A DNA stretch of 64,000 bases, taken from positions 4,518-68,517 of the forward strand of contig CAZDBT010000001.1 of the NCBI GenBank assembly GCA_964503795.1, given 5' to 3'. The notes below the pieces were generated by a model, which searched no databases, was not told the origin of the DNA, and saw only the letters and a list, made by a program, of their open reading frames with translations. Shown here piece by piece: positions 3,310 through 63,677 of the stretch. This DNA is from an uncultured Candidatus Saccharibacteria bacterium (lineage in GTDB: Bacteria; Patescibacteriota; Minisyncoccia; UBA6257; WO2-44-18). The stretch's first letter is position 1, and every line of letters starts with the position of its first letter. A program made the position numbers and the translations under genes.

Positions 3310-3347
3310 CTTTTGTCCTCCGAATTTGACTATCAGGAACTGCCAGT

Positions 3348-3376: not shown

Positions 3377-3380
3377 AAAG

Positions 3381-3417
3381 TCAAAAAAATAAAAACACCC
3401 CGTAGAACGGGGCGTTA
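3381..3417 (-). terminator. Rho-independent terminator after the cupin gene
   Basis: Minus-strand CGCCCCG-ttcta-CGGGGTG stem followed by TTTTTATTTTTTT. Confidence 0.55.
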
Positions 3418-3422
3418 AGAAG

Positions 3423-4169
3423 CTAGTCAGTCGGCCGAATCTTGGCTTCGGCGAACGGCTTGGCGATGATGCCAAGCATGATGTGATCGTTGAGGTAATA
3501 GTCCCAGTAAAGGTGGGTGCGAAGCTCGTTGCCATCGTTGGCCACTCCGTGCAAACAGGACTGGTTGAAGGTGTAAACCCAGCCAGCCTCCATCGTATAC
3601 GGCTTCTCGTCCATTAGGAACTTAACTCCGGGGTTGGTGAAGATCGGGAGATGGAACCGCAGCTTCCAGTTGTGTTCCCGTCCCGGGATAGCGATGATCT
3701 TCTCACGGTGCTTGCCAAGCGTACCACCGCCGGTGATGGACTGCATCCGAACGTTCTGCAGTTCGGAATCTCCGAAATAACGCCGGAAGAACTCCGGGAT
3801 GTGGACCAGTCGGCTGTTAAACTTCCGCTCCACCGCGCTCCAGTGGTGATCATCCTTGAAATACAACACGTCGTCCTTGGAGTTGTAGAGACTATGTTGC
3901 ATCAGACTGTTCGGCTTCGGCTTCCAGGAAGGGTCCTCGCGAGAAACGAATTTGTAGGTCGGGTGATCGCCGTCAACCATCTGGCCGGGATCGCTGGACA
4001 GAATACCCCGCACCTCGGCCTGGATCTTGGCGAACAGCTCCGGATCACACCGGAACAAGCGAAGGATAGAAATTTCTCCATGAATCAGCTTCGGAATCAT
4101 AGCATTGGCTTCCGGCGAATTCCGGCACAAGTCATCACTAAGTGGGGTAAATGGCTGTTCGGGCGTCAT
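3423..4169 (-). CDS. Cupin-fold protein, aspartyl/asparaginyl beta-hydroxylase-like family
   Basis: Start chosen at MTPEQPF (ATG 4169, AAAGGAGA SD). The C-terminal half has His/Asp spacing (HLPIFTNPG..., CLHGVANDGN...THLYWDYY) reminiscent of PF05118. Assignment is tentative. Confidence 0.4.
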   Translation of the reverse strand: MTPEQPFTPLSDDLCRNSPEANAMIPKLIHGEISILRLFRCDPELFAKIQAEVRGILSSDPGQMVDGDHPTYKFVSREDPSWKPKPNSLMQHSLYNSKDDVLYFKDDHHWSAVERKFNSRLVHIPEFFRRYFGDSELQNVRMQSITGGGTLGKHREKIIAIPGREHNWKLRFHLPIFTNPGVKFLMDEKPYTMEAGWVYTFNQSCLHGVANDGNELRTHLYWDYYLNDHIMLGIIAKPFAEAKIRPTD

Positions 4170-4265
4170 TTGAGTCTCCTTTGAAAGTCCTGCCCGTAAA
4201 TTAACGAAAAATAACCCAAAAGTCAACATAGAAAAAACCCGAGCGCGAGCTCGGGATTAATTTGT

Positions 4266-5108
4266 TTACATCGACCGGTAAATGTCCCGGATGAATTGAA
4301 TGTTCCTTTTGGCGTTGGCGACGACCAGATCCTGCTCGCCGCGGGCTGCCTGAAGGATCAAGGGGTTCCGGTAATTGATCGCCTTCAGCGCGGCGAACAC
4401 CGCAGGGAAATTGGCAGCTCCGGTTCCCAGCGGAACCGAGGAACCTCCCAATTTCCTATCCTTGACGTGGACGCCAACGATCAGATCTTTCAGCAGCAAG
4501 ATCTCTTTAGGCACATCAAATCCCATAGAGGCGGCATTGCCGACATCATAGTACACCTTCACCCGAGGATGCCGGAAATTTTCTATCAACTCCTTCAACT
4601 CTACCGCCGGCAGAGACGACTCAAAGGCAATGTCTACTCCGGCCGCATTAGCCTGAACCAAAAAAGGCGTCAAGTTGTTGATCAGTTGCGTCTTTTCATT
4701 ATCGCCGACGACCTCCGATCTTTCCAAGATCGGGATCAGGATCGTCTTGATCCCGATCCGCCGGCAGTTCTTAATAAGCAACGCCAGCACCACCTGCGCC
4801 AGCGCCAGCTTATCTCCAACGGAACGATGCAGGGTGTAATCCATGAAAAAATCTACGCACACCGAACGGATGGCGACCGAATTTTTTTCCGCCAACAGTT
4901 TCATTTCTTCCAACTCTAGGCCGCCGAGGATCGGATTGTCGGGGTAGTCTTCCGTGTGGAAGATCGGCTCGATCAACTGCAGTCCGATCTGGTGAGCCAG
5001 CGAAAATTCCGCGCGCCAGTTGTTCTTAGGGAAAAATTGCAGTCGGCCATCCGGAGAAGGCGTGAGTCTGCCCTGGATAATGCCGATGGGCGGATGATCA
5101 TTTACCAT
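4266..5108 (-). CDS. Sugar phosphate isomerase/epimerase (xylose isomerase-like TIM barrel)
   Basis: Start at MVNDHPPIGIIQGRL (ATG 5108, GGAGGGAGGA SD). The IGIIQGRL-type N-terminus and overall layout fit the AP-endonuclease-2/xylose-isomerase-like TIM barrel family. Confidence 0.55.
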   Translation of the reverse strand: MVNDHPPIGIIQGRLTPSPDGRLQFFPKNNWRAEFSLAHQIGLQLIEPIFHTEDYPDNPILGGLELEEMKLLAEKNSVAIRSVCVDFFMDYTLHRSVGDKLALAQVVLALLIKNCRRIGIKTILIPILERSEVVGDNEKTQLINNLTPFLVQANAAGVDIAFESSLPAVELKELIENFRHPRVKVYYDVGNAASMGFDVPKEILLLKDLIVGVHVKDRKLGGSSVPLGTGAANFPAVFAALKAINYRNPLILQAARGEQDLVVANAKRNIQFIRDIYRSM

Positions 5109-5863
5109 GCTGTCCTCCCTCCGTCCACGTGCAAGCACGCGCCGGTTACGAACGCCGAAGCGTCCGAAGCCAGGAATAACATCGGTCCGTTAAATTCGCC
5201 TGGCTGCGCCATCCGGCCCAGCATGTTCAGAGCGCCGTTCTTCTTGGCAAACTCTTCGGAATGATTGTTGTTCATCCCGCCGGGCGCCAAAGCGTTGACG
5301 CGAACGTTGTATTCGCCCAAGCGGGCCGCCCAAAATCTCATCATCCCGAGTACTCCGGCCTTGGCTGTTCCGTAGGCAATGTCCTTGAACTGGCCCGGCT
5401 GGTATAGAGAATTGTTCGGACCGATCACTCCCAAGTCGGAAGAAATGAAGATGATGGAACCGAACTTCTGATTCATCATCACCGGCGCCACCGCCTGGGT
5501 GACGAACATCTGGCCGCTCAAGTTCACATCGATCTCTCTGCGCCAGAGCTCGGCCGAAAAATCTTCATAAGCCTCCCACTGACGATGGACGCCCTCTTTG
5601 GCCACTGCCGGATTCAGAGCCGCATTGTTGATCAACGCATCAATCCGGTCGTAGGAATCAGTCACCTCTTCAACGGCTTTTCTGATTGCTGCGGGATTGG
5701 TTATATCCGTTATTACAGTATTGCTACCGTGGAGAGAAATAGCGTCCAAAACAACCGGTTTGCCGCCAGCCTGTTTGACTGCGGCAACATACTGTCGGCC
5801 CAAAAATCCATTCCCACCTGTGATCAGGACCACCTTGCCCTTCAACGAAAACAAGTCGCTCAT
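5102..5863 (-). CDS. Short-chain dehydrogenase/reductase (SDR) family oxidoreductase
   Basis: Start at MSDLFSLKGKVVLITGGNGFLGRQY (ATG 5863, AAAGGAGG SD). TGxxxGxG is the SDR cofactor motif. Confidence 0.7.
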   Translation of the reverse strand: MSDLFSLKGKVVLITGGNGFLGRQYVAAVKQAGGKPVVLDAISLHGSNTVITDITNPAAIRKAVEEVTDSYDRIDALINNAALNPAVAKEGVHRQWEAYEDFSAELWRREIDVNLSGQMFVTQAVAPVMMNQKFGSIIFISSDLGVIGPNNSLYQPGQFKDIAYGTAKAGVLGMMRFWAARLGEYNVRVNALAPGGMNNNHSEEFAKKNGALNMLGRMAQPGEFNGPMLFLASDASAFVTGACLHVDGGRTAW

Positions 5864-5964
5864 AAAGCCTCCTTTAAAAGTCCTGCCCATAAATTACCTG
5901 GAAAATACGTAAATGTCAATAAAAAATCGCCCCGCAATGAGGGGCGATCTAGTTTCATTCTTGG

Positions 5965-6924
5965 TTAACCTTTTCGCCGCAACTTCTTCATGATCGGAAT
6001 TTCGCTCTCCAGCACCCGCTTCACTCCATCGCCGCGCGCCGCTTCGAACTCTCGAATCCTGCCGACCAACTCGGCAAAATCTTTCGGCTCCAGACTGGCG
6101 GCCTGATCGCTGCCCCACATCTTGCGATCCAGGGTGATATGCCGCTCGATCACGCAAGCGCCCATTGCCACCGCGCAGAGAGTGGTATAGAGACCGGTCT
6201 CATGACCGCTATAACCGACGGGGATCCCAGAGTGATGCAGGCTTAGGTGGCGAATGACCTCCAGATTCAACTCCTCAAGTTTGGCCGGATAGGTTGAAAC
6301 GCAATGGAGCAGTACCAACGCCGGCTCTTTCCAAGCCGGCGCCAACACTTTGATGGCCTCCTTGATCTGTGAGTCAGTGCTCATTCCCGTGGAAAGGATC
6401 GCGGGCTTGCCCTTCGAGTAGATATGCCGGAGCAAACCATCATCGGTCAGAGAAGCGGAAGCCACCTTATAGCAGACGGGGTCGAACTCGTCGAAAAAAT
6501 CGACGCTCGCCTCATCCCAACAGGAAGCGAACCACATCATCCCGATCTCCTTGCAGTAGCGATCGATCTCTCGGTACTCATCGCGCGTCAACTCCAAGGC
6601 CCATTTCAGATCACCGTTGGTGGTGTTCCGGTAGCCGGATTTCTCCAAACGCTCGATGGCTTCTGCCGACAAAATACCACGTCGGATAGCATCGTACATC
6701 ATTTCCGCCGGGACTTCTCTGGCTTTTGCCAGCTCTTCCGGAGAATAAACCACCGGAACGGTCCGCTTCTGGAATTTCACCGCCTGGCAACCGGCTGCCC
6801 TTGCGGCATCGATCAGTTGCTTGACCAGCTCCATCCTGCCGTTGTGATTGATGCCGATCTCTGCGATGACAAAGGTCGGACGGTCGCTGCCGAGCTTCAC
6901 CCCACCGATGACGATTTCTCTCAC
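5965..6924 (-). CDS. Nonulosonic acid synthase, NeuB/PseI/LegI family (N-acetylneuraminate synthase-like)
   Basis: 319 aa. FVIAEIGINHNGRMELVKQLIDAARAAGCQAVKFQKR is the hallmark NeuB motif. The start codon appears to be GTG (cac at 6922-6924) with a GAGGAT SD. Confidence 0.75.
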   Translation of the reverse strand: MREIVIGGVKLGSDRPTFVIAEIGINHNGRMELVKQLIDAARAAGCQAVKFQKRTVPVVYSPEELAKAREVPAEMMYDAIRRGILSAEAIERLEKSGYRNTTNGDLKWALELTRDEYREIDRYCKEIGMMWFASCWDEASVDFFDEFDPVCYKVASASLTDDGLLRHIYSKGKPAILSTGMSTDSQIKEAIKVLAPAWKEPALVLLHCVSTYPAKLEELNLEVIRHLSLHHSGIPVGYSGHETGLYTTLCAVAMGACVIERHITLDRKMWGSDQAASLEPKDFAELVGRIREFEAARGDGVKRVLESEIPIMKKLRRKG

Positions 6925-10846: not shown

Positions 10847-13003
10847 CTACAAAATTTGCTTGAACATGTCAAAATAACGAAATTCAAATTTTATCTCATG
10901 CTTACCCTCGGGAACAAAGATGCCCCCGAACACGGAATTAACCCGATACATTGGAGTTTCTTTTCCATCGATAAGGGCTTTCCAGCCGGGAAGGAAGTTC
11001 TGAGAGAACACCAGAAACTGCTGACCGGAAGAGTTGGTGGACACCGCTACGCCACTATTCTTCTGGGAATTTATTTTCACAGCCCCATCGCTCCTTACGA
11101 TCTTCTGGGCGCACTCCGCGCAGGTCACGAACACTCCATGAAAGTCGGCGGCCTTAAAGGATTGATAACCTTCTTCATCGTCTTTAACGAACTTGGTGAT
11201 CGGAGAAAAATAGGCCATCCGCTTCGCGTTCGGATTTTCATAAATGCCGAAAGAGAGTTGATGATTCCCCGCTGTCAATTCCGGTATACTCATCACTCCA
11301 ACCACCGGGAAATTAAAACCGGCGGCGCTAAGATTGAAAGCCGACAACAAATATCGTACCCCAAGAAAATTAAGCAAACCCTCCCGGTCCTTTAGCATAA
11401 GGATCTTCTCCATTTCGGGAACATTAAATTTATGCAGTTTCTTTTCTCCGTACTCTCCCAGCTGACGGCTGCCCAACAGAGCCATAAATCTCCCCATATT
11501 TCGCGGTAGCAACGGGTCAAGGAACTCTATGCTTTGGAGTCCATACCAAAGATTGATGTTCGGCTTAAGGGTATCGATCTCGCTGGCAGAAACAGATCGG
11601 ATGTCGTCCGGCGGAGCCTGATTTAACAAGGAGTAATAGAATACGGACATAGTATTTTCCGGCAGAACGAACAGGATGCGGCCGTCTTTCGCGGTAGCCT
11701 GCAATGTTTTTGTCGCGGAGTTGTCGGTAAAGATGGACGGGGCTACGGTTACCGGTCCGAATTTCCCGATCACGGCCAGTTTATAGTCCAAAACGGTTAA
11801 CCCGATCAAAAGTCCCAGCGCCCAAGATCGCGCCTTGGGATCTTTGAGCTGCTGGAACCTGGCTTCCAGCTTAGGCCATATTTGCGCCAAGCCCAGTCCG
11901 GCCAAAACCGATCCCGCGAAGGAACCCAGGATCATAAACCGGCTTGGGTAGCGGAAATAACGCAGAACCGGCAGATGCTGAAGAAGCCAGAAAAGCGGCG
12001 AACCGTTGAACGCGATAAAGAGAACTACGATGAATACGCAGCCGAAAAATTTAATGTAGGAATTCCGGAAAAAGAACGATCCGATGAAGAAAAGTAGCGG
12101 CAATAATCCCATATATAGAAATGCCTCCGATGAGCGCGGCCAAAACGGATCAATAAATAAAAGAAGGTCGGAAAAAGTTACCGGCTCAGCCGATGCCGCC
12201 TCGGTAAATGAAATCCCGCCCGCCCGGATCGAGTATTGGGTAACCGCAAAAGCGGGAATGAGCTGGAGAGACCCCAAGACGGTGCCGATGCCGCAGATCA
12301 GAATAAAATACCCGGCGATCTTCCATAACTTCTGCTTCATCTTCCAGGCCATAAATAGAGCGAATGCGAAACCGCCGATGATCGTATAGGTCACGAATTG
12401 ATAATTGCTGCTGCCTCCCAACCATCCCAAAAACACCCCCAAACTAAGCAGCCCTCCATACAACCAACGCCTTCTGGAAGAATCGGCTTTAATGAATTTT
12501 ATTATCCCCCAAAAGAAAAACGCCTGAAAAAGAACCGCGATCGCCGTAACCGAGTTGTTCTCATAAACTATCTGACTGATCAGATAACTGACGCCGCCAA
12601 CCCAGGCCGCAACTATTCCGGCATCCAACTCTTGTATGAATAAGACGGCAAAAAACAGAGCGAGAGACAAAACAAGGAAAAGACTTATGTGGTGCGCGGC
12701 CACCGGGGACAGGAAAAGAAGAAGGGCGTGGAGAGGAAAAAATGGATATGGTTGAGATACGAAAGCGGGAAAACCGCCGGCGTTATAGGGACTCCAAAAT
12801 GGACTATCGCCGCTCTGAAAGGCCGATTTTAAGAAAGTGAGATAAGGAATAAAAAGATCGCTCTGGTCTCCTCTGATGATCTTGCCTCCTAAAAAATAAG
12901 GGGAAAAGATCAGTAAAATTACAAAAAAAGACAGGCAGAGAATAAGAGGCGGTTTCTGGAATAAGACTTTCATTGTCAGATATAAAGTAAATATTACCTT
13001 CAA
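10847..13003 (-). CDS. YfhO-like polytopic membrane protein (putative GT-C extracytoplasmic glycosyltransferase)
   Basis: 718 aa. About 12 or more hydrophobic segments, followed by a large soluble C-terminal domain. Size and layout fit the YfhO family, and it pairs with the adjacent GT2 as in CsbB-YfhO systems. Confidence 0.5.
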   Translation of the reverse strand: MKVIFTLYLTMKVLFQKPPLILCLSFFVILLIFSPYFLGGKIIRGDQSDLFIPYLTFLKSAFQSGDSPFWSPYNAGGFPAFVSQPYPFFPLHALLLFLSPVAAHHISLFLVLSLALFFAVLFIQELDAGIVAAWVGGVSYLISQIVYENNSVTAIAVLFQAFFFWGIIKFIKADSSRRRWLYGGLLSLGVFLGWLGGSSNYQFVTYTIIGGFAFALFMAWKMKQKLWKIAGYFILICGIGTVLGSLQLIPAFAVTQYSIRAGGISFTEAASAEPVTFSDLLLFIDPFWPRSSEAFLYMGLLPLLFFIGSFFFRNSYIKFFGCVFIVVLFIAFNGSPLFWLLQHLPVLRYFRYPSRFMILGSFAGSVLAGLGLAQIWPKLEARFQQLKDPKARSWALGLLIGLTVLDYKLAVIGKFGPVTVAPSIFTDNSATKTLQATAKDGRILFVLPENTMSVFYYSLLNQAPPDDIRSVSASEIDTLKPNINLWYGLQSIEFLDPLLPRNMGRFMALLGSRQLGEYGEKKLHKFNVPEMEKILMLKDREGLLNFLGVRYLLSAFNLSAAGFNFPVVGVMSIPELTAGNHQLSFGIYENPNAKRMAYFSPITKFVKDDEEGYQSFKAADFHGVFVTCAECAQKIVRSDGAVKINSQKNSGVAVSTNSSGQQFLVFSQNFLPGWKALIDGKETPMYRVNSVFGGIFVPEGKHEIKFEFRYFDMFKQIL

Positions 13004-13060
13004 TAATACCGCTTTACAACATCATTGAAAGAATGGGGTTTTTATTGTAATCTGGTGCTA

Positions 13061-14035
13061 ATGAATGGTTCCCCAAAAGCCATATTAGTTACCGGTTGCG
13101 CCGGTTTTATCGGCGGCAATTTTGTGGATCATTTCCAACAACAATTTCCCGAAACCGAGATCATCGGGATCGACAACTTCGCCACCGGACGCCGTTCGAC
13201 CGTGAATACTAAAATAACTTTCTACGAAGGTTCGGTTCTCGATCAAGAATTACTCACACAAATATTCGGCCGGCACAAACCGGAATACGTTTTCCATTTC
13301 GCCGCCGTGCCGCGCGTATCTTATTCCGTGGAACACCCGAGAGAAACCACCGAAAACAACGTGATCGGAACAGTAGCCCTGCTGGAATCGGCCAAAACCC
13401 ACGGCGTAAAAAGGTTTATTTACTCTTCCTCGTCGTCCGTATATGGCGGAGCGGCCAAGCTCCCCACAAAAGAATCGGAAAACGCGCCGAACCCGAAGTC
13501 CCCCTATGCTTTTCAAAAATATGCCGGCGAACCTCTCTGCAGGATCTTCAGTGAACTTTACGGACTCGATACGGTCACTCTGCGATACTTCAATGTTTTC
13601 GGACCGGGCCAATACGGAGACTCGCCCTACGCCAGCGTAATTTCCGGCTGGCTTGAAGCGATCTTCCAACCCGATAAAAAACGGAATCCTTTTATTGAAG
13701 GCGACGGCGAGCAATCGCGCGACTTTTGCTACATCAGTAACGTGGTAGAGGCGAATATTCTGGCGATGCGGTATCCGAAGTCGCTCGGCGGAGAAGTGTT
13801 CAATATCGCCTGCGGCGACAGAACCAGCGTGAACCAAGTCCACGACTTAATAGAACAATATTCCGGAAAAAAATTAGATCTGGAAAAGCGCCCCGCCCGC
13901 GCCGGCGATATCAAACATTCTTACGCCGACATTTCCAAAGCCGGGGAATGGCTAGTCTATCAGCCTAAAGTATCGTTCGTAGAGGGACTCAAAAAAACGA
14001 TCGCCTGGCACCAGAGGCGGGCAGATCAACTGTAA
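13061..14035 (+). CDS. NAD-dependent epimerase/dehydratase (UDP-sugar 4-epimerase-like)
   Basis: Start at MNGSPKAILVTGCAGFIGGNF (ATG 13061). Rossmann and extended-SDR motifs are present. It is the only plus-strand gene in this stretch. Confidence 0.65.
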   Translation: MNGSPKAILVTGCAGFIGGNFVDHFQQQFPETEIIGIDNFATGRRSTVNTKITFYEGSVLDQELLTQIFGRHKPEYVFHFAAVPRVSYSVEHPRETTENNVIGTVALLESAKTHGVKRFIYSSSSSVYGGAAKLPTKESENAPNPKSPYAFQKYAGEPLCRIFSELYGLDTVTLRYFNVFGPGQYGDSPYASVISGWLEAIFQPDKKRNPFIEGDGEQSRDFCYISNVVEANILAMRYPKSLGGEVFNIACGDRTSVNQVHDLIEQYSGKKLDLEKRPARAGDIKHSYADISKAGEWLVYQPKVSFVEGLKKTIAWHQRRADQL

Positions 14036-45360: not shown

Positions 45361-46125
45361 CTAGCGGGGGAACTTCCGGGAGGCGGCGAGACCGAGGTAG
45401 GAATCGGAGGAGTCGCCGTCGTACCAGTAGTCGACGTGGAGCTGGCCCCCGTAGAAGAGGACGTAGACGCGGCCGCCGTCCGAGGAAAGGGACGAGCTAC
45501 GCACTCCGTCGTTCTTCTCCCAGGTGTAGAGCTTGGTACCGGTCATCATATGATAGATGACCATCAGCTGGGCTAGGACAACGGCGGGCGGGTTCTCTTC
45601 CTGATTGGAGAGAAGCGCCATCTGCTGGCTGTAGGTCTTGTTGGTGGAATTGGGCACCCGATCCTTACGGATCAGGTGCCAGCGGACTTCCGGACGCTCC
45701 GAGTGAGCGAACGAATGGCCGTTGTACCAGGCGTCGGAGTAGGAGTAGAAAAGCTTGTTTGGAGCCTTCTCGCGGGTCTCCAAAATGGAGAGCGGGAAGC
45801 TGGGGAAAAGAATGTGTGTGTCTTTGCATTCCCGAAGGACGGATTCACCGAACGGGATAGTCGCCAGCTTCAGCAGGTCGCTTGAGGAGTATTTCACTGT
45901 GAGCTTGGACATCACGTCGGACGGAAAGATGAAATTCTGTCCCATGATCATCCGAGCCGCTTCCTGCGCGAGACCTTCTCCGACCGGTTGGCTCTGCTCG
46001 AGCTGTTTCACTAACCCGGCAACCTTCTGAAAAAGCGATGAGGTCGAGCTGATCAGCTTCTCTGCTTCGTCCCGGACTTCCACCAGAGCTAGCTTCACTG
46101 CTTCGCTCTTTTCCGCGTCGGTCAT
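45361..46125 (-). CDS. Unknown-family protein, paralog A of a tandem pair flanking hicBA
   Basis: 254 aa. It shares HILFPSFPLSILET, SERPEVRWHLIRKDRVPNSTNKTYSQQMALLS, EENPPAVVLAQLMVIY and LGLAASRKF blocks with the ORF at 46939..47697. GC-rich codon usage. AGGAGA SD. Confidence 0.6.
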   Translation of the reverse strand: MTDAEKSEAVKLALVEVRDEAEKLISSTSSLFQKVAGLVKQLEQSQPVGEGLAQEAARMIMGQNFIFPSDVMSKLTVKYSSSDLLKLATIPFGESVLRECKDTHILFPSFPLSILETREKAPNKLFYSYSDAWYNGHSFAHSERPEVRWHLIRKDRVPNSTNKTYSQQMALLSNQEENPPAVVLAQLMVIYHMMTGTKLYTWEKNDGVRSSSLSSDGGRVYVLFYGGQLHVDYWYDGDSSDSYLGLAASRKFPR

Positions 46126-46193
46126 GGCTTATCTCCTAAAAATTGAGTTTTGAGTTTTTTATCCGCTCATTGCGGATGTTTTGAACTGCCGTA

Positions 46194-46223
46194 AATATAG
46201 CACACTTTAGGCTTATTTGTCAA
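46194..46223 (-). promoter_or_regulatory. Sigma70-like promoter for paralog A
   Basis: Minus-strand TTGACA, an 18-nt spacer, then TATATT, about 60 nt upstream of the ATG at 46125. A 6-bp hairpin ATCCGC/GCGGAT sits in the 5' UTR. Confidence 0.45.
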
Positions 46224-46246: not shown

Positions 46247-46480
46247 TTAGAAATTCAACCACTCTCCTTTCGGAATACCTGACTGCGCGATCATACCTTT
46301 TAAAGTTCGGGGTTTAAAAGTTTTCGATGAATGAAATGGGACGCAAACCTGCATCAATTTTCCCTCATAGACTCCAGTAAAAAAATGATGGCTTCCCTCC
46401 GTATGATTCAGGCGAAAACCGTGTTCTTTTAAAAACTCTGCGACGTCATGAAACGTCCAATTAAAAACCTTTCTAGGCAT
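46247..46480 (-). CDS. hicA: HicA-family toxin (mRNA interferase)
   Basis: 77 aa. FLKEHGFRLNHTEGSHHFFTG...VCVPFHSSKTFKPRTLKGMIAQSGI matches HicA/YcfA (GSHH-F motif). AT-rich compared with its flanks. Confidence 0.7.
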   Translation of the reverse strand: MPRKVFNWTFHDVAEFLKEHGFRLNHTEGSHHFFTGVYEGKLMQVCVPFHSSKTFKPRTLKGMIAQSGIPKGEWLNF

Positions 46481-46814
46481 GCACCAAGCTACGGTTACTC
46501 ATGCTGCCAAAAGTAAACACATTTGACGGCACCTCTTCTTTGTTAGACTTTTTTACCTCCAACGAGTCCCACAGATCTTCATATTCGGGATCAGTTTTTT
46601 GATTCAAGATATGATTGATTCTGGCTTTGGCTTTTTGGGCTGATTTTAAATACCCGCGGGTGGCTTCAAGTAAGAGGAAAAGAGCCTCATCTGGGGTATC
46701 CGCCGATTCAACAATATTGAACTCTAAACCCACTCCGTACCAAACACCCTCTTCGCGAAAGATTATATACCTCAATGACCCTTTTTGAAGAGTATTTTGA
46801 TTTAATTTAGTCAT
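46473..46814 (-). CDS. hicB: HicB-family antitoxin (RNase-H-like fold, UPF0150)
   Basis: 113 aa. YIIFREEGVWYGVGLEFNIVESADTPDEA matches the HicB N-domain. It overlaps hicA by 8 nt. Confidence 0.6.
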   Translation of the reverse strand: MTKLNQNTLQKGSLRYIIFREEGVWYGVGLEFNIVESADTPDEALFLLLEATRGYLKSAQKAKARINHILNQKTDPEYEDLWDSLEVKKSNKEEVPSNVFTFGSMSNRSLVHA

Positions 46815-46938: not shown

Positions 46939-47697
46939 TCACTTCTGGAACTTCCGGGAGGCGGCGAGACCGAGGTCGGAATTGTAGTAGTCGCCGTTCC
47001 CGTCGCCGACGTCGAGCCGGCCCTCGTAGAAGCCGACGCCGACGCGGTCGCCGTCCGAGGACTTGGAGCAGGAGCGCGCGTAGACCGACTCGAACAACTT
47101 CTTGCCGGTCATCAGGAAATAGATGACCATCATCTGCACCAGCACAACCGCCGGCGGATTCTCTTCCTTGTCGGAAAGCAGAGCCAGCTGCTGATCGTAG
47201 GTCTTATTGGTGGAATTGGGCAGGTGGTCCTTGCGGATCAGATGCCAACGGACTTCCGGACGCTCGCTCTTGGCGAACTTCTCGGTGTTGTACCAGTCCT
47301 GTTCGTAGAACAGGCCGGAAGCTTTCGCCTTCGTCTCCAAGATGGAGAGGGGGAAGGTCGGGAAAAGGATGTGGTTGTCCCGAAGCTCTTGCAGGATTTC
47401 GGGGCTCCAGGGGATCTTCTCCAGCGACTTCAGCTCCTTGTCGGAGTATTTCACTCCAAGTTTGGCCATCACCTCGCCGGGAAGGATGCACTGATCGCCG
47501 AGGATCAGCTTGGCGCCGGACTGGTCGGAGGAATGACCACGACCACCGGAACGGATGAACTCCACCACTCTCTGCGCCAGGGCGTTGCCCTTGCTTTCGA
47601 TCACCGCCTGGGCTTCTTTCTGGCCCAGTCCGGCCGCTTCCAACTTCACCAGAAGCTCATGCTCGCTGTGAACGGAAAGCTCACGATGATTGCTCAT
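46939..47697 (-). CDS. Unknown-family protein, paralog B
   Basis: 252 aa, paralogous to 45361..46125 (about 50% identity by eye). GAAAGGAAG SD. A 29-nt stretch, gaacttccgggaggcggcgagaccgaggt, is identical at the 3' ends of both genes. Confidence 0.6.
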   Translation of the reverse strand: MSNHRELSVHSEHELLVKLEAAGLGQKEAQAVIESKGNALAQRVVEFIRSGGRGHSSDQSGAKLILGDQCILPGEVMAKLGVKYSDKELKSLEKIPWSPEILQELRDNHILFPTFPLSILETKAKASGLFYEQDWYNTEKFAKSERPEVRWHLIRKDHLPNSTNKTYDQQLALLSDKEENPPAVVLVQMMVIYFLMTGKKLFESVYARSCSKSSDGDRVGVGFYEGRLDVGDGNGDYYNSDLGLAASRKFQK

Positions 47698-47780
47698 CGC
47701 ACACTTCCTTTCTTGAAAAGAACTGTTGCTCGAGGCCCGAGCAGGCAGTCAAGCGAACGCTTGATTGCCTAAATTATAAT

Positions 47781-48173
47781 CTATTCCGCAGCTTTTGTCA
47801 ACAAGTCGAGAATTTCGGTTCCACTAATAATTTCGGCGCCTTTTTTCACCACCTTCAGACCGTTGAACTCCTTTGGCGCGTGCGAAGCGGTAACCATTAC
47901 TCCGCCAACCGCCTTCAATTCATTGGCCAGAAAATAAAACATCGGGGTGGTGCAAAGACCCGCCTCTTCAATAATAAAACCGCGATCCTGAAAAACTTCG
48001 CGAATCGCCTCATATATGGAAGGCGAACTCAAGCGTGCGTCGTAGCCAATAATGATCTTGCCCTGCTGGAAACGGTCGGCTAAGACTTCCGCGATCTGCC
48101 TGCCCGCCGCCTCGTTGATCTCATCCGGGTAGCGGCCGCGAATGTCGTAAGCCTTGAAGATCGCCCGGTTCAT
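47781..48173 (-). CDS. Phosphomannomutase/phosphoglucomutase, N-terminal fragment (domain I)
   Basis: Start at MNRAIFKAYDIRG (ATG 48173, forming an ATGA overlap with the HAD gene stop). VMVTASHAPKEFNGLKV is the phosphoserine loop (TASHNP-type). It stops after about 130 aa at the domain I/II boundary. Confidence 0.8.
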   Translation of the reverse strand: MNRAIFKAYDIRGRYPDEINEAAGRQIAEVLADRFQQGKIIIGYDARLSSPSIYEAIREVFQDRGFIIEEAGLCTTPMFYFLANELKAVGGVMVTASHAPKEFNGLKVVKKGAEIISGTEILDLLTKAAE

Positions 48174-58666: not shown

Positions 58667-59821
58667 TTATTTCGCCAGCTTTTTCAGCTTATTGACCCGG
58701 TCGGTCCGCTCCCAGGGCAAGTCAACATCCGTACGGCCAAAATGACCATAAGCCGCGGTAGGGAGGTAGATCGGGCGCAGTAGATCGAGATCGCGAATGA
58801 TCGCCGCCGGACGAAAATCAAAAACCTCGCTAACAATATCGGCGATCCGATTGTCGGATAGCTTGCCTGTGCCGAAAGTGTTCACATTGAACGCCAGCGG
58901 CCGACTCATACCGATCGCGTAGGCAACTTTCACTTCGGCTTTCTTGGCCAGCCCGGCGGCAACAATATTTTTCGCCGCCCAACGCATCGCGTAGGCCGCG
59001 GAGCGATCCACCTTGCTCGGATCCTTCCCGGAAAAAGCTCCTCCACCGTGCTTGGCCATTCCGCCATAGGTATCAACGATTATTTTTCTCCCCGTGAGCC
59101 CCGTGTCACCGGCCGGACCACCGATCACGAACCTCCCGGTCGGATTCACGAAAATTTCTGTCTCCTTATCAATAAACTTTTTTGGAACAACCGGTTTGAT
59201 GACTTTTTCTATCAAGGCCTTCCGCAGCTGCTCTCCGGAAAAATCCGGATGATGCTGGGTGGAAATTAAAATATTTTTTATCCGATGCGGCGCGCCATCC
59301 CGATACTCAATGGTCACTTGGGTTTTTCCGTCCGGTCGGAGGTTGGGGAGTGTGCCGTCTTTTCTAACTTGAGAAAGTTTCCAGGCCAGTAAATGCGCAA
59401 GCGCGATCGGCAAAGGCATCAAAGTTTTGGTTTCATCCGACGCGTAGCCATACATCATTCCCTGGTCTCCCGCTCCTTGCTCCATCGGATCCTTCCGATC
59501 CACGCCCATCGCGATATCCGGCGACTGACGATTGAGCATCAACGTAACTTTTACGGTTTTATAGTCCAAACCTTTTTCCACACTATCGTAACCGATATTT
59601 TTTATGACCCGCCGAGCAACTTTTTCCGCATCTACTTTCCCTTTGGAAGTTATCTCGCCACCAATTACTAACTGATCATTGCAGGCGAAAGTCTCACAAG
59701 CCACCCGAGATTTTGGGTCCTGCTTCAAATAGGCGTCTAAAATAGCGTCGCTTATCTGATCACAGACCTTATCCGGATGCCCCTCGGTAACCGATTCTGA
59801 AGCCAGGTAATCGATCTTCAT
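58667..59821 (-). CDS. metK: S-adenosylmethionine synthetase
   Basis: 384 aa. [23 protein letters not shown] and [19 protein letters not shown] are canonical MetK motifs. Confidence 0.95.
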
Positions 59822-59904: not shown

Positions 59905-60381
59905 ATGACCAATTTCGCAGAGTTCGAAAAAGCCAATGTCCCGGAAGAGGCTGCGGACAAAGCAAAATCCGAGTCGGCGCCGGAAACTAAAGAAGGCGTA
60001 CAGGAACAAATTGCTAAAGAAAGCAAAAAGCTGGAGTTAAACGTCGCCCTGATGGACGCCGGGTTGACCGACCTCAATAAGCAGGCGGAAAAACAAACCA
60101 GCCCGGAAGCCAAGATGACGCGCGAGGAAAAGCTTAAAAAAATTCAGGAAAGCTATGAGGTTGAGAAGACTGGAATAAATGTCTTCCCAATCGTTGGAAT
60201 CGCAATGTCTGTGTTCAGCGGCGCCATGATGCTTTCCCAAGGAAGCCCCGAGGATCTGCCGGGGACTCTCTTAATGTCGGGCGCTATTACAGCGGCAACT
60301 GCGGGCATTTGGGCTTTTGCTAGATTGCATGAATTCTTGAAATTCAAGAAGGAAACCAAGGCTGTGGAGAAAGAAGGATAA
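59905..60381 (+). CDS. Hypothetical protein with charged N-terminal region and two C-terminal transmembrane helices
   Basis: 158 aa. A Lys/Glu-rich N-terminal half is followed by FPIVGIAMSVFSGAMML and LMSGAITAATAGIWAFA hydrophobic segments. Confidence 0.45.
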   Translation: MTNFAEFEKANVPEEAADKAKSESAPETKEGVQEQIAKESKKLELNVALMDAGLTDLNKQAEKQTSPEAKMTREEKLKKIQESYEVEKTGINVFPIVGIAMSVFSGAMMLSQGSPEDLPGTLLMSGAITAATAGIWAFARLHEFLKFKKETKAVEKEG

Positions 60382-60395
60382 AAATCAAAAATTAA

Positions 60396-60593
60396 ATGGA
60401 AAATAGACTAAACGAACTTGCGGAAAAAGCGAAAAATCAGACTCTCTCGCCAGAAGAGCAACAGGAGTTTTTGACGTTATTCAATCAGGAGATGGTAACT
60501 CTAGAAAAAGAGCAGCCGGAAAAATATTTGGAGATCCTCAAGGTTTTGAATAAAACCTTGGATAAAGTTAACGACACGCTCGCCGGTAGATAA
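60396..60593 (+). CDS. Small hypothetical helical protein
   Basis: 65 aa, followed by a strong terminator. No homology recognised. Confidence 0.35.
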   Translation: MENRLNELAEKAKNQTLSPEEQQEFLTLFNQEMVTLEKEQPEKYLEILKVLNKTLDKVNDTLAGR

Positions 60594-60626
60594 GGTTCGG
60601 CTGTTCGATTCCAAAGGCAAGAAATA

Positions 60627-60657
60627 CAAAACAGGGCAATTGCCCTGTTTTGTATTT
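60627..60657 (+). terminator. Rho-independent terminator (bidirectional)
   Basis: AAAACAGGGCAATTGCCCTGTTTT perfect palindromic stem followed by GTATTTG. It lies between the small plus-strand gene and the 3' end of tRNA-Arg. Confidence 0.6.
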
Positions 60658-60658
60658 G

Positions 60659-60730
60659 TGCCCCCGGAGGGAATCGAACCCCCATCTCTTGGTTCGAAGC
60701 CAAGTATTCTAACCATTGTACTACAGGGGC
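60659..60730 (-). tRNA. tRNA-Arg (anticodon TCG)
   Basis: Reverse complement GCCCCTGTAGTACAATGGTTAGAATACTTGGCTTCGAACCAAGAGATGGGGGTTCGATTCCCTCCGGGGGCA. It has anticodon stem CTTGG/CCAAG with loop CTTCGAA, and T-loop TTCGATT. The D-stem has one mismatch. Confidence 0.8.
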
Positions 60731-60900
60731 AAAGCTGTCTAAATCTCCTACATTATACCTTACTTTCCGTCTATTGACAAATTCTTGCGGCCTGCTATAA
60801 TGTGCCTAGAACTTCGTAATCGCTTCTACCTTATAGCTTGCCAATAGGCGGGCGGTAGGAGCACCAAACGGGGGCAACCCCATTTTTACAGGAGGTCGTC

Positions 60901-61797
60901 ATGTTCGATGTGAAAACGATGTTGACCGAAGAGGCCCAGAAATCCTGGACCGAGGGAAGATGGAAGGGCAAAATCACCATTCATGATTTTGTCCCGGCGA
61001 TGAAGTCGCTTGGTCGTCTCGCGACGACCGAAGACATCGACACCTACGTGGCATCGGCGAAGGCCGATGATCTCGACCAGCCGCTGACGCGGCACGATGT
61101 CCGGGAGCGGTTCAGAGGGGCGAAGAGCCTCGATGACTTTCCTGTGACTCGGGCGCTGCTCCGCTGGCTTCGCAGCCAGAAGGTCAACGGCCGGGAAGCG
61201 AACCTGGACTTCACCGTCTGGAAGGCAATGAAGACGCGGGCCAACAAGGAAGGTCGGCAGCTCGACCTCGCTTTGGGACAGGCGCTCTTCGCCACGATCA
61301 CGAAAGTGATCTCGGTGAAGGCGGCCGGTCCGGACACGACGGTCATCGACTACAAAGTCGGCGGCCGGTTCTCCTGCGCCTGGGACGGCTGCATCGGTCA
61401 GAGCATCCCCCAGATGCAGACGCTGACGGACCCGAACGGCCAGGTGCGGACCCATGAGAGCGGACCCCTCGCGGGCCAGGCTCTCCGGGTCGGCGACTTC
61501 CTGATCCGCCGGGGGAAGGACAACAGCTGGGAGATCCAGCCCCTGTGCCACGAGCACCGGAGACTGGCGGTCCAGGCCGGCAACACCACGTATCCCTTCG
61601 GGGACGCGATGGCGATCGTCGACTCTCTCAACGCCGCAGAGGCGGACGAGAAGGCGAGGGAGGCGAAACGTCTGGGCGATCTCGCGGCCATGAAGCAGCT
61701 GGCGGCGAGTTCTCCGGTGGCTGCCCAGCGGCAGCGCAACCAGGAGGTCCGCCAGACGGTCGCCGGAAACCGGATCAATCGTGATCGTCGCCGGTAG
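60901..61797 (+). CDS. GC-rich hypothetical protein with Cys/His cluster (possible HNH-like/zinc-binding motif), likely horizontally acquired
   Basis: 298 aa. Strong AGGAGG SD 7 nt upstream. Codon usage is markedly GC-rich (GAC/CGG/GCG/CTC) compared with the flanks. The motif is CAWDGC...H...C-HEH. A strong terminator follows. The antisense 335-aa ORF on the minus strand is R/L/P-rich, as expected for a GC artefact. Confidence 0.6.
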   Translation: MFDVKTMLTEEAQKSWTEGRWKGKITIHDFVPAMKSLGRLATTEDIDTYVASAKADDLDQPLTRHDVRERFRGAKSLDDFPVTRALLRWLRSQKVNGREANLDFTVWKAMKTRANKEGRQLDLALGQALFATITKVISVKAAGPDTTVIDYKVGGRFSCAWDGCIGQSIPQMQTLTDPNGQVRTHESGPLAGQALRVGDFLIRRGKDNSWEIQPLCHEHRRLAVQAGNTTYPFGDAMAIVDSLNAAEADEKAREAKRLGDLAAMKQLAASSPVAAQRQRNQEVRQTVAGNRINRDRRR

Positions 61798-61803
61798 CAC
61801 TAA

Positions 61804-61854
61804 CCCCCCTGCGGAGGAGAGAGTAGAATCTCTTCTCCCAGGGGTCTTTTTTTG
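61804..61854 (+). terminator. Strong rho-independent terminator
   Basis: CCCCTGCGGAGGAGAGA-gtagaa-TCTCTTCTCCCAGGGG stem followed by TCTTTTTTT. Confidence 0.7.
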
Positions 61855-61931
61855 AAAATTTGATTCTTGGCGCATGCAATGGGCATGTTTCAAGAAACAA
61901 GTTTTTTAAAATCTTTTTGAGGAGCAGAGCC

Positions 61932-62672
61932 GTGAACAAACAAGAAAGAAGGCAGGCGAAAGATCAGATCGTTGCTTTGCTGGCCGAAGCCACAAAGGAC
62001 TTCGAAGACATCTTCGAAGAGCAGCGCCGCAAGCTGGGCATGGCCTTCAGAACACTGAACATCGGGAACCATCATTCCAAGATGGTCTTCCGCAGTTTGG
62101 GCGATGGCGAGCTTGAAGAAGCGAAAAAGCATCTCGACGAATGTCTGGAGAAGTACAACGAACTGAAACAGGCGAACATTCCCAGCATCTTCTTGCGGGA
62201 ACTCGTCAACGATGCCGGCCAGGAGCTTTACGAAGCTGTTCTGGGTTTCGAACTTTACCCTTTTTTGATCGGAAAAAACGATGCTCTTAAGATCAGCCTC
62301 CCCAATGACATGGACTTTGACATCACCCCACAGGCTCTGCTGGCTGGGATGGGGGATGTGGCCAGCGAACTGGGAAAGCTGATCGAGCTCATCTTCTACT
62401 ACCAGGTGAAGCATGGCTCTTTGAAGATCAGCCGCAAGGAACTCTTCGAGCGCCGGATCCTCATCGCCGAAGCAATCCAGGTCTACATGGATCGGTACGC
62501 CAGCGCCTACCCTCTGGTGCTGAGCGCCTCCCGTCGTCCCGGTCAGGGCTTCAGCAACAAGAAGCGTGGCGTGGACATGGGCAAGTTCTTCGGAATCAAG
62601 GACTACAACAACCTGATCGAAAGCGAGGAAGTCGAAGCGGATGAAGAAGTCGATCCGGCTCGGATCGGATAA
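61932..62672 (+). CDS. Hypothetical protein (acidic C-terminus), second gene of the tRNA-Arg-adjacent islet
   Basis: Start chosen at the GTG at 61932, preceded by GAGGAG at 7 nt. The ORF-track start (ATG 61860) lies inside the upstream terminator T-run. No family recognised. Intermediate GC. Confidence 0.5.
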   Translation: MNKQERRQAKDQIVALLAEATKDFEDIFEEQRRKLGMAFRTLNIGNHHSKMVFRSLGDGELEEAKKHLDECLEKYNELKQANIPSIFLRELVNDAGQELYEAVLGFELYPFLIGKNDALKISLPNDMDFDITPQALLAGMGDVASELGKLIELIFYYQVKHGSLKISRKELFERRILIAEAIQVYMDRYASAYPLVLSASRRPGQGFSNKKRGVDMGKFFGIKDYNNLIESEEVEADEEVDPARIG

Positions 62673-62705
62673 CAAGCAACCCCGACGGGAAACCGTCGGG
62701 GTCTT

Positions 62706-63677
62706 TTATTTAGCAAACGGGTTCCTGGCTCCGTGAATTTCAAAATGCAGATGGCAGCCGGTCGGGCCGTGTACCATGCCGGTATTGCCGATCTTGGCGA
62801 TCACATCGCCCTGCAAAACATAATCACCGACCGAGACCGAATTCTTTTCGGTGTGCGCGTATTTAGTAACCACGCCGTTCGGATGTTCTATCTCCACGAA
62901 TCCGCCGTAGCCGTCGTTCCAGCTGCCCGGGTCGCCGATGTGCGCCACTAAGCCTTCGGCGGACGCGTAGATCGGAGTGCCGCAAGCATTCGCGATATCC
63001 ACCGCGTTGAAATTGTGCAGCTGGCCCCAGTTCCAGCCAGTGGTTGGCAGGATGAAATAACCGGGATAATTCGGCAGGTTGGCCAAAGAAGCGCTAGCCA
63101 AAGTTTGTTTCGGTTTCGCGCCGGGAATTACCAATGTGGAACCGACTTTCAAATTTCCGGATGCCTGCTTGTTGTATTGAACGATCTTTGCGGGCGGAAC
63201 CCCGTAAAATTCGGCCAGCGAGTCAGTTGTATCGCCATCTTCCACGTGGTGTAATACTCCGGAGACCGGCAAGATAACCAACTCTTGCCCCAGCCGAAGA
63301 TTATTGCCCAAGCTGCTGTTCGCCCAAAAAATCGTGTTCAGAGAAATGCCGAAGTTGGAGGCGATCTTGGAAAGCGTATCTCCTTTTTGAACCTTATAAG
63401 TCAGCAGGCCGTCGCGGTTCGACAGGATTGTGCTTAATGGATTACCGGCGTTCAACATTGAGTCGCCATCAACCACCACGAACCCGGCGGTCTCATCGGG
63501 GTTACTGGCCACATCAAAGCTATCTCCGAGGATCTGATCGGCCGTCACCGAATCCTGCTGCAGACCAACCGATTCCTGCAGATCGGCAAATGCCTTGGGA
63601 ATCACCGATCCCTCGCCGGCCACCCGGTTACTGCGAGCTAAAACCAAAAAATTCAGGCCAATGCCCATAAGAACCAA
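62706..63677 (-). CDS. LysM-domain M23-family metallopeptidase (peptidoglycan hydrolase)
   Basis: 323 aa. It has an N-terminal transmembrane anchor and two LysM repeats (YKVQKGDTLSKIASNFGISLNTIFWAN and HHVEDGDTTDSLAEFYGVPPAKIVQYN). The M23 core is HPNGVVTKYAHT...GNTGMVHGPTGCHLHFEI. Confidence 0.85.
   Translation of the reverse strand: MVLMGIGLNFLVLARSNRVAGEGSVIPKAFADLQESVGLQQDSVTADQILGDSFDVASNPDETAGFVVVDGDSMLNAGNPLSTILSNRDGLLTYKVQKGDTLSKIASNFGISLNTIFWANSSLGNNLRLGQELVILPVSGVLHHVEDGDTTDSLAEFYGVPPAKIVQYNKQASGNLKVGSTLVIPGAKPKQTLASASLANLPNYPGYFILPTTGWNWGQLHNFNAVDIANACGTPIYASAEGLVAHIGDPGSWNDGYGGFVEIEHPNGVVTKYAHTEKNSVSVGDYVLQGDVIAKIGNTGMVHGPTGCHLHFEIHGARNPFAK

Follow-up and report, generated by a model that had tools for sequence, protein, structure and literature searches.

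Does a gene of strongly deviating composition that lies beside a tRNA gene have to be a recent import? The question is raised by a locus in a 64,000-nucleotide stretch of DNA (the window; contig CAZDBT010000001.1, assembly GCA_964503795.1) from an uncultured Candidatus Saccharibacteria bacterium. A first-pass annotation, made from the letters of the sequence, had described two plus-strand genes (gene 1 and gene 2 below) 5' of a minus-strand tRNA-Arg gene, and had taken them for horizontally acquired cargo at a tRNA hotspot. We confirmed both genes and their coordinates, and here we examine the locus by comparison with its relatives. It is well supported that the locus is old and positionally fixed in a lineage of Patescibacteria (candidate phyla radiation, CPR; Paceibacteria-like), and likewise well supported that alleles of each of its two cassettes are exchanged between related genomes, most parsimoniously by recombination in conserved borders. 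The GC-richness of gene 1 is maintained, most likely by selection on RNA, and not a relic of import. With moderate confidence we favour a reading in which this old, fixed, hypervariable locus would serve in conflict or defence and would owe its lasting GC-richness to effects on RNA. The descriptive part of this reading is far more secure than the functional role, which we infer from the evolutionary mode of the locus and from a predicted nuclease.

The region consists of two separate, self-contained expression cassettes between a tRNA-Arg/metK side and an M23/UvrD side, with the following features (L001-L022 and L086-L088 are labels of related loci compared with the window, P-numbers denote members of the gene 1 family, and dN and dS are nonsynonymous and synonymous divergence).

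58667-59821, minus strand: metK (S-adenosylmethionine synthetase), conserved left flank; identity 92-94% in L001 and L004, dN/dS 0.02-0.03
60658-60730, minus strand: tRNA-Arg gene (anticodon TCG), from ARAGORN; Rfam score 67.8 bits
60774-60801, plus strand: gene 1 promoter, TTGACA-N16-TATAAT with an extended -10 TG; score 12/12
60802-60900, plus strand: conserved 5' leader of gene 1, ~100 nt, recognized by conservation and predicted fold
60888-60893, plus strand: Shine-Dalgarno sequence of gene 1, AGGAGG, read directly from the sequence; 7 nt follow, then ATG
60901-61797, plus strand: gene 1, 298 amino acids, novel family
61806-61853, plus strand: intrinsic terminator of gene 1, a 16-bp stem followed by UCUUUUUUU; -30 kcal/mol, 0 of 200 shuffles equally stable
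61854-61931, plus strand: spacer with the gene 2 Shine-Dalgarno sequence (GAGGAG, 61919-61924) and, in the window, a putative weak promoter
61932-62672, plus strand: gene 2, 246 amino acids, divergent protein of the TRAX/translin superfamily
62679-62711, no strand assigned: bidirectional terminator common to gene 2 and the convergent M23 gene; gene 2 hairpin at 62679-62702, -21.9 kcal/mol
62706-63677, minus strand: LysM/M23 peptidase (Pfam), conserved right flank; identity 85-93% in L001, L003 and L005
from about 63757: UvrD, beyond M23

Position, composition and age of the locus

Gene 1 has a GC content of 0.640 and a GC content at third codon positions (GC3) of 0.823, in a window whose mean GC is 0.494. 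The GC peak of the whole window, calculated with an 897-nt sliding window, falls at 60921 (z = 4.6), and the GC3 of gene 1 lies about 4 standard deviations above that of host open reading frames (ORFs; n = 51-60; mean 0.57-0.58, standard deviation ~0.06). Gene 2 is intermediate, with a GC of 0.533 (88th percentile) and a GC3 of 0.70, about 2 standard deviations above host genes. The compositional pattern reported in the first-pass annotation, with gene 1 far above its flanks and gene 2 in between, holds on calculation, as do the AGGAGG sequence, the strong gene 1 terminator (stem at 61806-61844 with one bulge; z = -3.7), the basic C-terminus of gene 1 and the acidic tail of gene 2. The long plus-strand stretch to which the genes were assigned is real as well, but begins earlier than had been thought, at 59905, with two small genes described below.

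The locus keeps its place over a long evolutionary distance. The usual order, found in more than 10 independent Patescibacteria assemblies, is tRNA-Arg, GC-rich gene 1, gene 2, M23 peptidase and UvrD. All 5 close relatives of gene 1 are embedded in the series tRNA-Val, tRNA-Lys, metK, tRNA-Arg, gene 1, second gene, LysM/M23 and UvrD, and the same slot is filled in L001-L009, L011, L086 and L087, which stem from independent samples. More distant gene 1 clusters with readable context (L086 and L087) again stand beside a second gene, M23 and UvrD; the contig of L088 ends downstream of gene 1. GTDB species representatives reached through their M23 genes (L006-L009 and L011), from genomes labelled Patescibacteria, Paceibacterota, Harrisonbacteria or Minisyncoccia, carry genes of the gene 1 and/or gene 2 family in the slot, with hidden Markov model (HMM) E-values down to 1e-16 for gene 1 and 1e-25 for gene 2. 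Across the genomes that share the slot, metK is 79-94% and M23 59-93% identical to the window's. The tRNA-Arg gene is in the equivalent position in L001-L008 and L086, and is non-adjacent in L009 and L087. A chimeric assembly, raised at first pass as a possibility to be checked, is excluded, since the same arrangement and the same jump in GC recur in independent assemblies from different samples.

The composition is as persistent as the position. Gene 1 alleles have a GC of 0.61-0.65 and a GC3 of 0.80-0.91 in hosts of 42-52% GC at all loci except L088, where the most remote allele (P0015 type) has a GC3 of 0.50 in a host with a GC of 0.417. Between the window and L001, L003 and L004, dS is 0.38-0.78 in gene 1 versus 1.0-1.8 in the flanks. 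Because a relic of import would decay, and would do so differently in each lineage, the persistence of the anomaly argues that it is no such relic. A compositional outlier need not, then, be a recent import: gene 1 has kept a GC3 of 0.8-0.9 across alleles that are 22-45% identical.

These observations bear directly on the first proposal, a recent islet at a tRNA hotspot in which gene 1 is an HNH-type nuclease and gene 2 its immunity partner. The locus does share with tRNA-linked integrative islands an adjacent tRNA gene and an anomalous composition, and gene 1 does encode a Cys/His cluster. Unlike such islands, it has no integrase domain in the neighbouring ORFs (Pfam) and no att-like repeat of the tRNA (search for tRNA-derived repeats), and its genes are placed 5' of the tRNA. 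We rejected a tRNA-integrated island on these grounds and because no close relative lacks gene 1 and L005 alone lacks gene 2. Homologues conserved in the lineage, which the first-pass annotation had named as evidence contrary to import, are indeed found as far as position is concerned. The strict form of the islet proposal is refuted by synteny and by the family analyses below, and we consider the proposal as a whole very improbable. One part of the claim of horizontally acquired cargo survives, in that alleles in the slot move between related genomes; a recent insertion is contradicted by the synteny of more than 10 assemblies.

Exchangeable alleles and the proteins they encode

Between the window and L001, L003 and L004, flank proteins are 85-94% identical, compared with 65-80% for gene 1 and 26-32% for gene 2, and dN/dS is 0.32-0.46 for gene 1 versus 0.02-0.07 for the flanks. 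The changes in similarity are abrupt. DNA similarity to L001 and L003 continues at ~78-80% through gene 1 and the spacer, which is conserved by blastn as far as the start of gene 2, and ends there (61912/61934). Similarity at the DNA level is lacking within the coding sequence of gene 2 and returns at the terminator, with 62677-62707 matching L001 at 100%.

Alleles and flanks also tell different histories. L005 is the closest relative by M23 (93%); its gene 1 is 37-43% identical to the window's, and gene 2 is absent. L003 and L086 have gene 2 alleles that are 85% identical, with M23 at 78% and gene 1 at 41%, and the best match of the window's gene 2 is in L087 (43%), where M23 is 65% identical. 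Compared with the more distant L001, the window's gene 1 has a dN of 0.20, and since gene 1 of the nearer L005 diverges far more, allele replacement via conserved borders is more parsimonious than variation in rate. The borders used in cassette exchange would be the promoter and leader, the inter-cassette spacer, and the junction of terminator and M23.

We noted several further variants of the locus. The gene 2 allele of L086 that resembles L003's (1309-1941, plus strand) ends early, at 210 amino acids, has lost a C-terminal SRR..RG motif and may be in decay. A perfect consensus promoter of its own lies at 1203-1231, in a position equivalent to the window's spacer. L008 has an unrelated 462-amino acid orphan with a GC3 of 0.90 (11849-13237, minus strand) in the gene 1 slot, behind the same conserved promoter, together with a TRAX-like gene at 11002-11727 (minus strand). 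Other GC-rich orphans occur in the neighbourhood in L010, L012, L013, L014 and L022, and none in L015. Iterated HMMs did not unite the orphans of L008, of L010, L013 and L014, or of L012 and L022 with gene 1. A beta-CASP metallo-beta-lactamase (RNase J-like fold; Pfam) lies between M23 and the GC-rich orphan in L012 (11024-12487, minus strand), and a 513-amino acid ORF in L022 (11313-12854, minus strand) resembles it at the start of its sequence; the two ORFs stand in the place of the TRAX-like gene, next to orphans with a GC3 of 0.85-0.88. Small ORFs of GIY-YIG and LAGLIDADG homing-endonuclease type were seen near the locus in L002 (81-347, minus strand) and L004 (1465-1911, plus strand), and the GIY-YIG ORF separates tRNA-Arg from the gene 1 promoter in L001 and L002.

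Gene 2, described at first as an orphan, belongs with relatives of TRAX and translin; the TRAX/C3PO family of RNases is central to eukaryotic RNA interference and tRNA processing. Used as a single sequence, gene 2 matches AfTRAX (3ZC1) with E = 1.3e-4. A profile of 3 sequences matches AfTrax over residues 10-181 of 199 with E = 1.7e-8, and a profile of 8 sequences matches AfTrax with E = 1.3e-6 and Nanoarchaeum NeC3PO with E = 0.005. The Pfam Translin family (PF01997) is matched by 1 of the 8 family members (E = 9e-4), with no match at E <= 1 for the gene 2 of the window, and the NCBIfam PRK14562 models are matched by 7 of the 8. The scores are far below curated family thresholds (26 bits for PRK14562, where the cut-off is 228), so gene 2 represents a new and distant branch rather than an equivalog. 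Models PRK14562.1-1 to -6 bear the name 'haloacid dehalogenase superfamily protein', yet AfTRAX matches them at E = 3e-40, and the name appears to be a misannotation of an archaeal TRAX-like family.

The published two-metal ligands are E123/E126/D193/E197 in HsTrax and E82/E85/D117/E121 in NeC3PO, with D114 in AfTrax (PMC5100593). Residues E98, E101, D142 and E146 of gene 2 (codons 62223-62225, 62232-62234, 62355-62357 and 62367-62369) align with these ligands and keep the E-x2-E and D-x3-E spacing. All 8 family members have D142 and E146, and 7 of them also have E98 and E101; the TRAX-like gene of L008, in which these first two catalytic Glu are replaced by D and K, may be inactive. Judged by its sequence, gene 2 is a distant TRAX/C3PO-type protein with an intact E-E-D-E site and a predicted two-metal, Mg2+/Mn2+-dependent nuclease; the analogy of archaeal C3PO makes a homo-oligomeric cage its probable form. 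Like the archaeal TRAX-like C3PO proteins (AfTrax 3ZC0/3ZC1; NEQ131/NeC3PO 5JR9) it is a single-gene prokaryotic form, and it aligns over nearly the full length of AfTrax. It differs from them in its very low identity, in a different C-terminal region with an acidic tail, and in behaving as a hypervariable exchangeable cassette. Prokaryotic translin genes have been reported only from archaea and Chloroflexi (PMC5100593), and our literature search found no paper that links translin-family genes to Patescibacteria. Gene 2 extends the TRAX/C3PO family to this new phylum, in the form of an exchangeable, hypervariable cassette.

Such a protein would also suit a housekeeping pair in RNA metabolism, with the TRAX-like nuclease removing RNA fragments, gene 1 as an abundant RNA-binding protein or chaperone and fast evolution due to relaxed constraint in the reduced genomes and small populations of CPR bacteria. 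Eukaryotic C3PO is reported to clear RNA fragments, e.g. pre-tRNA leaders. This explanation accommodates the stable position beside tRNA genes, metK, M23 and UvrD across a broad clade, the retained TRAX catalytic site, the beta-CASP protein in the equivalent place in L012 with its similar ORF in L022, the presence of the same promoter class before NusA-like and tRNA genes, and the lack of matches to defence models (see below). What it explains poorly is an identity of 26-32% where neighbours stay at 85-94%, the incongruence of alleles with flanks, and a gene 2 that is absent in L005, truncated in L086 and altered at catalytic residues in L008. An unrelated GC-rich gene in the gene 1 slot of L008 and the extreme rarity of both families are also at odds with it, and we consider a housekeeping role unlikely.

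Gene 1 is a new protein family without sequence or fold relatives. It has only 5 close relatives among 5.8 billion proteins, to which an exhaustive profile search (1.84 billion representatives) adds ~20 more distant clusters; the gene 2 family gave 3 matches. GTDB representatives gave 0 matches to a gene 1 peptide pattern, and a metagenome scan gave 1 locus. Among 17 gene 1 family members there was no meaningful match to a Pfam, PHROG, NCBIfam or PADLOC model, and PDB holds no sequence match. The confidence (pLDDT, predicted local distance difference test) of the AlphaFold2 model was 48 when built from the 5 close sequences and 85.9 from 17 that included distant homologues. Two helical modules (residues 4-58 and 64-140) are followed in the model by a beta-rich one (~145-232) and by a long C-terminal helix (233-297), tipped by an Arg-rich tail.

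Six residues are invariant in the 17 sequences (D145, C159, C164, G198, C216 and A236), and H219 is nearly so, being C in some members. The first cysteine pair, initially read as CxxxC, is in fact C-x4-C (C159, codon 61375-61377; C164, 61390-61392), and is followed by C-x2-H (C216, 61546-61548; H219, 61555-61557), an arrangement of knuckle and helix start with which the AlphaFold2 secondary structure is compatible. This Cys3-His pattern looks like a structural zinc site; the module, a candidate for the zinc-ribbon/treble-clef type, has no significant structural match. Its presence and the basic tail suggest that gene 1 probably binds nucleic acid. With HNH and other beta-beta-alpha-metal nucleases gene 1 shares the Cys/His cluster, the C-x4-C knuckle and a C-x2-H at a helix start after beta strands. 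We nevertheless rejected HNH or any other nuclease for gene 1, since H217 of the 'HEH' motif varies and no HNH or other nuclease fold is matched; the nuclease-like protein of the islet proposal is gene 2. The gene 1 family evolves through module duplication, an N-terminal W..G.W.GK module being duplicated in P0011, P0017-P0019, P0023 and P0024. The allele of L005 (P0009; 367-1608, plus strand), with 413 amino acids, has a tandem duplication of the entire Cys/His beta module.

Transcript-level signals and the GC-richness of gene 1

The promoter of gene 1 is one of only 2 perfect matches in the 64 kb, where 0.01 would be expected by chance, and it is retained before the GC-rich gene in L001, L003-L008, L086 and L087. 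In 424 kb of Patescibacteria loci we found 17 perfect promoters, 11 of which precede the GC-rich gene of the slot or a GC-rich orphan at 46939 of the window (see below); the others lie before NusA-like genes, near tRNA genes or before gene 2 of L086.

The leader that follows is 79-98% identical across 5 lineages, L086 included, where the gene 1 protein is 43% identical; synonymous sites of the flanks, in contrast, differ at 56-68% of positions. Conservation of the leader exceeds both that of the gene 1 protein and that of neutral sites. Its predicted fold, with a minimum free energy (MFE) of -37.3 kcal/mol (z = -2.7), is a three-way junction that joins one long hairpin, a second hairpin (GGGG/CCCC, GNRA-capped, with a U-run) and a closing helix in which the 5' CUUCGUAA is predicted to pair with the 3' part of the Shine-Dalgarno sequence and the bases immediately upstream. 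Variable columns number 5 of 56 in paired and 19 of 39 in unpaired positions (p = 2e-5), and every change in the main hairpin is G-U compatible. These features suggest a candidate cis-regulatory RNA, predicted to occlude the Shine-Dalgarno sequence. The more distant alleles are preceded by leaders of about the same length but another sequence, for which hairpins that occlude the Shine-Dalgarno sequence are often predicted. The gene 1 leader is like riboswitches and ribosomal-protein autoregulatory leaders in its conservation, predicted structure, occlusion of the Shine-Dalgarno sequence and terminator-like hairpin with U-run. It is unlike them in having no Rfam 15 match (60731-60900, E <= 1), no compensatory covariation and no known ligand or partner, and in its change of sequence in more distant alleles.

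The coding part of the mRNA is also structured. We compared it with synonymous-codon permutations, a null that keeps the protein, the codon usage and GC3, and obtained z = -1.9 to -5.8 (mean -3.6) for 7 gene 1 alleles. The same null gave a mean z of -0.55 (standard deviation 1.15) for 14 host genes and of -1.11 (standard deviation 1.33) for 12 GC-rich alphaproteobacterial control genes, from which the gene 1 alleles differ with p = 1.7e-5 and p = 6e-4, respectively (Mann-Whitney). Dinucleotide shuffles agree, with z of -3.1 for gene 1, -4.7 for gene 2 and -1.1 for M23. Because GC3 stays at 0.8-0.9 whatever the GC of the host, and because the mRNA exceeds its permutations in structure, we consider maintenance at the RNA level the most likely source of the GC-richness; the two observations point to selection at the nucleotide or RNA level of a protein-coding gene.

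Other sources of a high GC3 were considered. Codon adaptation was rejected, as it does not fit L009, where host genes have a GC3 near 0.35 and gene 1 has 0.85. Also rejected was a functional link to tRNA-Arg(UCG) through usage of CGG, which makes up 52% of the Arg codons of the window's gene 1 but is inconsistent across alleles. Mutation bias linked to transcription is unlikely, since third positions of gene 1 have about as much G as C, with A and T equally depleted. This strand symmetry fits better with GC-biased gene conversion at a recombination hotspot, which would raise GC3 and leave both the GC-richness and the mRNA structure without function. Recombination signatures are present at the locus, and gene 2, which is exchanged as well, has a moderately raised GC3. 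The size of the effect is the main difficulty, a GC3 of 0.85 in a host near 0.35 being far beyond the effects of biased gene conversion in bacteria, which are much smaller. Gene 2 is, moreover, at least as hypervariable and much less GC-rich, and synonymous codons of gene 1 are arranged in a more structured way than in permutations of equal GC3. We judge gene conversion an improbable cause.

A possible role in conflict

If the locus is a conflict or defence module, as we favour, cassette 1 would be transcribed from an extended -10 promoter of consensus sequence, equal in quality to those of NusA-like and tRNA genes, and has a leader predicted to occlude the Shine-Dalgarno sequence. The TRAX-like product of gene 2 would be an effector that cleaves nucleic acid, and the product of gene 1 a tightly controlled nucleic-acid-binding factor able to work without gene 2. 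The role would be one against phages or mobile elements, or in conflict between strains, under diversifying selection. The nuclease/immunity or defence pair suggested at first pass is upheld to the extent that a nuclease is predicted and a conflict role plausible; as a pair it is weakened by the lack of gene 2 in L005 and by the terminator between the genes.

Variable cargo in hotspots between conserved core genes is known from defence islands and hotspots and from polymorphic toxin/immunity loci. The present locus resembles such cargo in its conserved flanks, sharp borders, incongruent alleles, fast evolution, predicted nuclease and variable content. It differs in keeping the same two families over a long distance, in lacking any known defence family and mobility genes, and in the host-conserved promoter and leader of cassette 1. 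A type II toxin-antitoxin pair was rejected, given the -30 kcal/mol terminator and 134-nt spacer between the genes, their products of 298 and 246 amino acids, and the occurrence of gene 1 alone in L005. The target of a diversity-generating retroelement was rejected as well, because no segment of the islet has a second copy in the window, A and T are equally depleted at third positions, with no bias specific to adenine, and variation is gene-wide; a reverse transcriptase could still lie beyond the window. A paper on a 'hypervariable gene' of Gracilibacteria concerns a repeat locus and is unrelated.

Several points weigh against the conflict reading or parts of it. Positional conservation over so long an evolutionary distance is unusual for defence cargo. 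The proteins of the window match no PADLOC-DB 2.0 defence model at E <= 1, and the 17 gene 1 and 8 gene 2 family members yielded one stray weak match per family (E = 0.0045 and 0.0017). No relatives were found in 50,697 phage genomes (INPHARED), 72,556 plasmids (PLSDB) or IMG/VR and no PHROG matches, although sampling of CPR phages is poor. No functional domain can be recognised in gene 1, which makes its role a guess, and the TRAX assignment of gene 2 is one of sequence and profile comparison. The two genes are separate transcription units and L005 does without gene 2, so that a functional partnership can only be presumed. Some of the incongruence among alleles could also be mimicked by very rapid divergence in the absence of recombination. 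As for RNA, no compensatory double change supports the leader structure across the compared lineages, the test of paired versus unpaired columns is circular in part, since the sequences tested also served to derive the structure, and the excess structure of the mRNA consists of MFE predictions with 24 permutations per gene for alleles that are not fully independent.

Genes built like gene 1 occur elsewhere in the window. The second perfect promoter, at 47773-47801 on the minus strand, stands before a GC-rich orphan (46939-47697, minus strand; GC3 0.81), and a 54% identical paralogue lies at 45361-46125 (minus strand; GC3 0.77) with a near-consensus promoter at ~46185-46212 (minus strand), a leader hairpin, an AGGAG Shine-Dalgarno sequence and a strong terminator. 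Both paralogues share the build of gene 1: a sigma-70 promoter at or near consensus, then a leader, an AGGAG-type Shine-Dalgarno sequence and, at the end, a strong terminator. Neither has a Pfam match, and their mRNA-structure z values are -1.4 (46939-47697) and -3.5 (45361-46125). Between them, at 46247-46814 (minus strand), are a HicA toxin gene (Pfam E = 6.7e-12) and, upstream of it, a HicB-like partner of 113 amino acids without a Pfam match.

This second occurrence is among the observations that would suit an origin of the cassettes as moron-like or domesticated units, captured repeatedly at a hotspot beside M23 from a GC-rich pool of CPR phages and plasmids whose GC they would retain. 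Phage morons are autonomous promoter-gene-terminator units of deviating composition, and the cassettes are like them in being self-contained, with a strong promoter, Shine-Dalgarno sequence and factor-independent terminator of their own, and in their composition. Exchange of alleles and the unrelated GC-rich orphans in the same neighbourhood (L008, L010, L012-L014 and L022) would follow naturally, as would two GC-rich paralogues with consensus-type promoters beside HicA/HicB-like genes. Unlike morons, the cassettes have no prophage context and a chromosomal position conserved across species, and relatives from phages, plasmids, IMG/VR or PHROG are lacking. The promoter and leader are conserved with the host lineage, in a region common with the tRNA promoter, and gene 1 dS does not exceed that of the flanks. 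A GC3 of 0.8-0.9 after a dS of 0.4-0.8 needs active maintenance, and the composition of a donor leaves the excess mRNA structure unexplained. On balance we regard capture from such a pool as unlikely.

A more speculative extension of the conflict reading, to which we attach little weight, is that the GC-rich orphans of this genome, gene 1 included, are a new class of 'privileged transcripts': autonomous units behind consensus promoters, with coding sequences under selection for GC-richness and heavy base-pairing, whose mRNAs survive the single-strand-specific RNase activity of neighbouring nucleases. The nucleases concerned may be the TRAX-like protein here, the HicA-family toxin at 45.4-47.7 kb, and the beta-CASP protein in L012 and probably L022. 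If this were so, the locus would represent a new RNA-level module of conflict or abortive response in CPR bacteria, in which a nuclease degrades the AU-richer RNA of cell or invader and the GC-armoured message is still translated under the control of its leader. CPR bacteria are uncultured episymbionts with tiny genomes, and a locus that is kept in them, has a promoter of top strength and is diversified likely matters in their conflicts with phages, hosts or each other.

Four further features surround or overlap the cassettes.

59905-60593, plus strand: two small genes with weak Pfam matches only, a window-specific insertion 3' of tRNA-Arg, outside the conserved locus
60622-60657, no strand assigned: perfect, loopless palindrome of 18+18 nt, a terminator-like hairpin touching the 3' end of tRNA-Arg
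60752-60780, minus strand: promoter-like site of tRNA-Arg, TTGTCA-N17-TATAAT, 11/12; putative function
60886-61893, minus strand: antisense ORF of 335 amino acids, codon-aligned with gene 1; not a gene

The small genes, with 158 amino acids (hydrophobic in the C-terminal half) and 65 amino acids (weakly DUF896-like), are missing between metK and tRNA-Arg in L001, L004 and L005. They form the only window-specific indel in blastn comparisons with relatives, on the 3' side of the tRNA, and no att repeat was found at the insertion. The palindrome is probably a bidirectional terminator, and the promoter-like site of tRNA-Arg overlaps the gene 1 promoter in divergent orientation. The antisense ORF, which had been put down to high GC, is an artefact of composition. 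Its GC3 is 0.62 versus 0.82 in the sense frame, and it is open because its stops correspond to sense TTA, CTA and TCA codons, which are absent at high GC3. Elsewhere in the window, 5 consecutive ORFs at 2296-6924 (minus strand) have a GC3 of 0.66-0.70 against a host mean of 0.57, and may form a gene cluster that was acquired separately or is under a different constraint.

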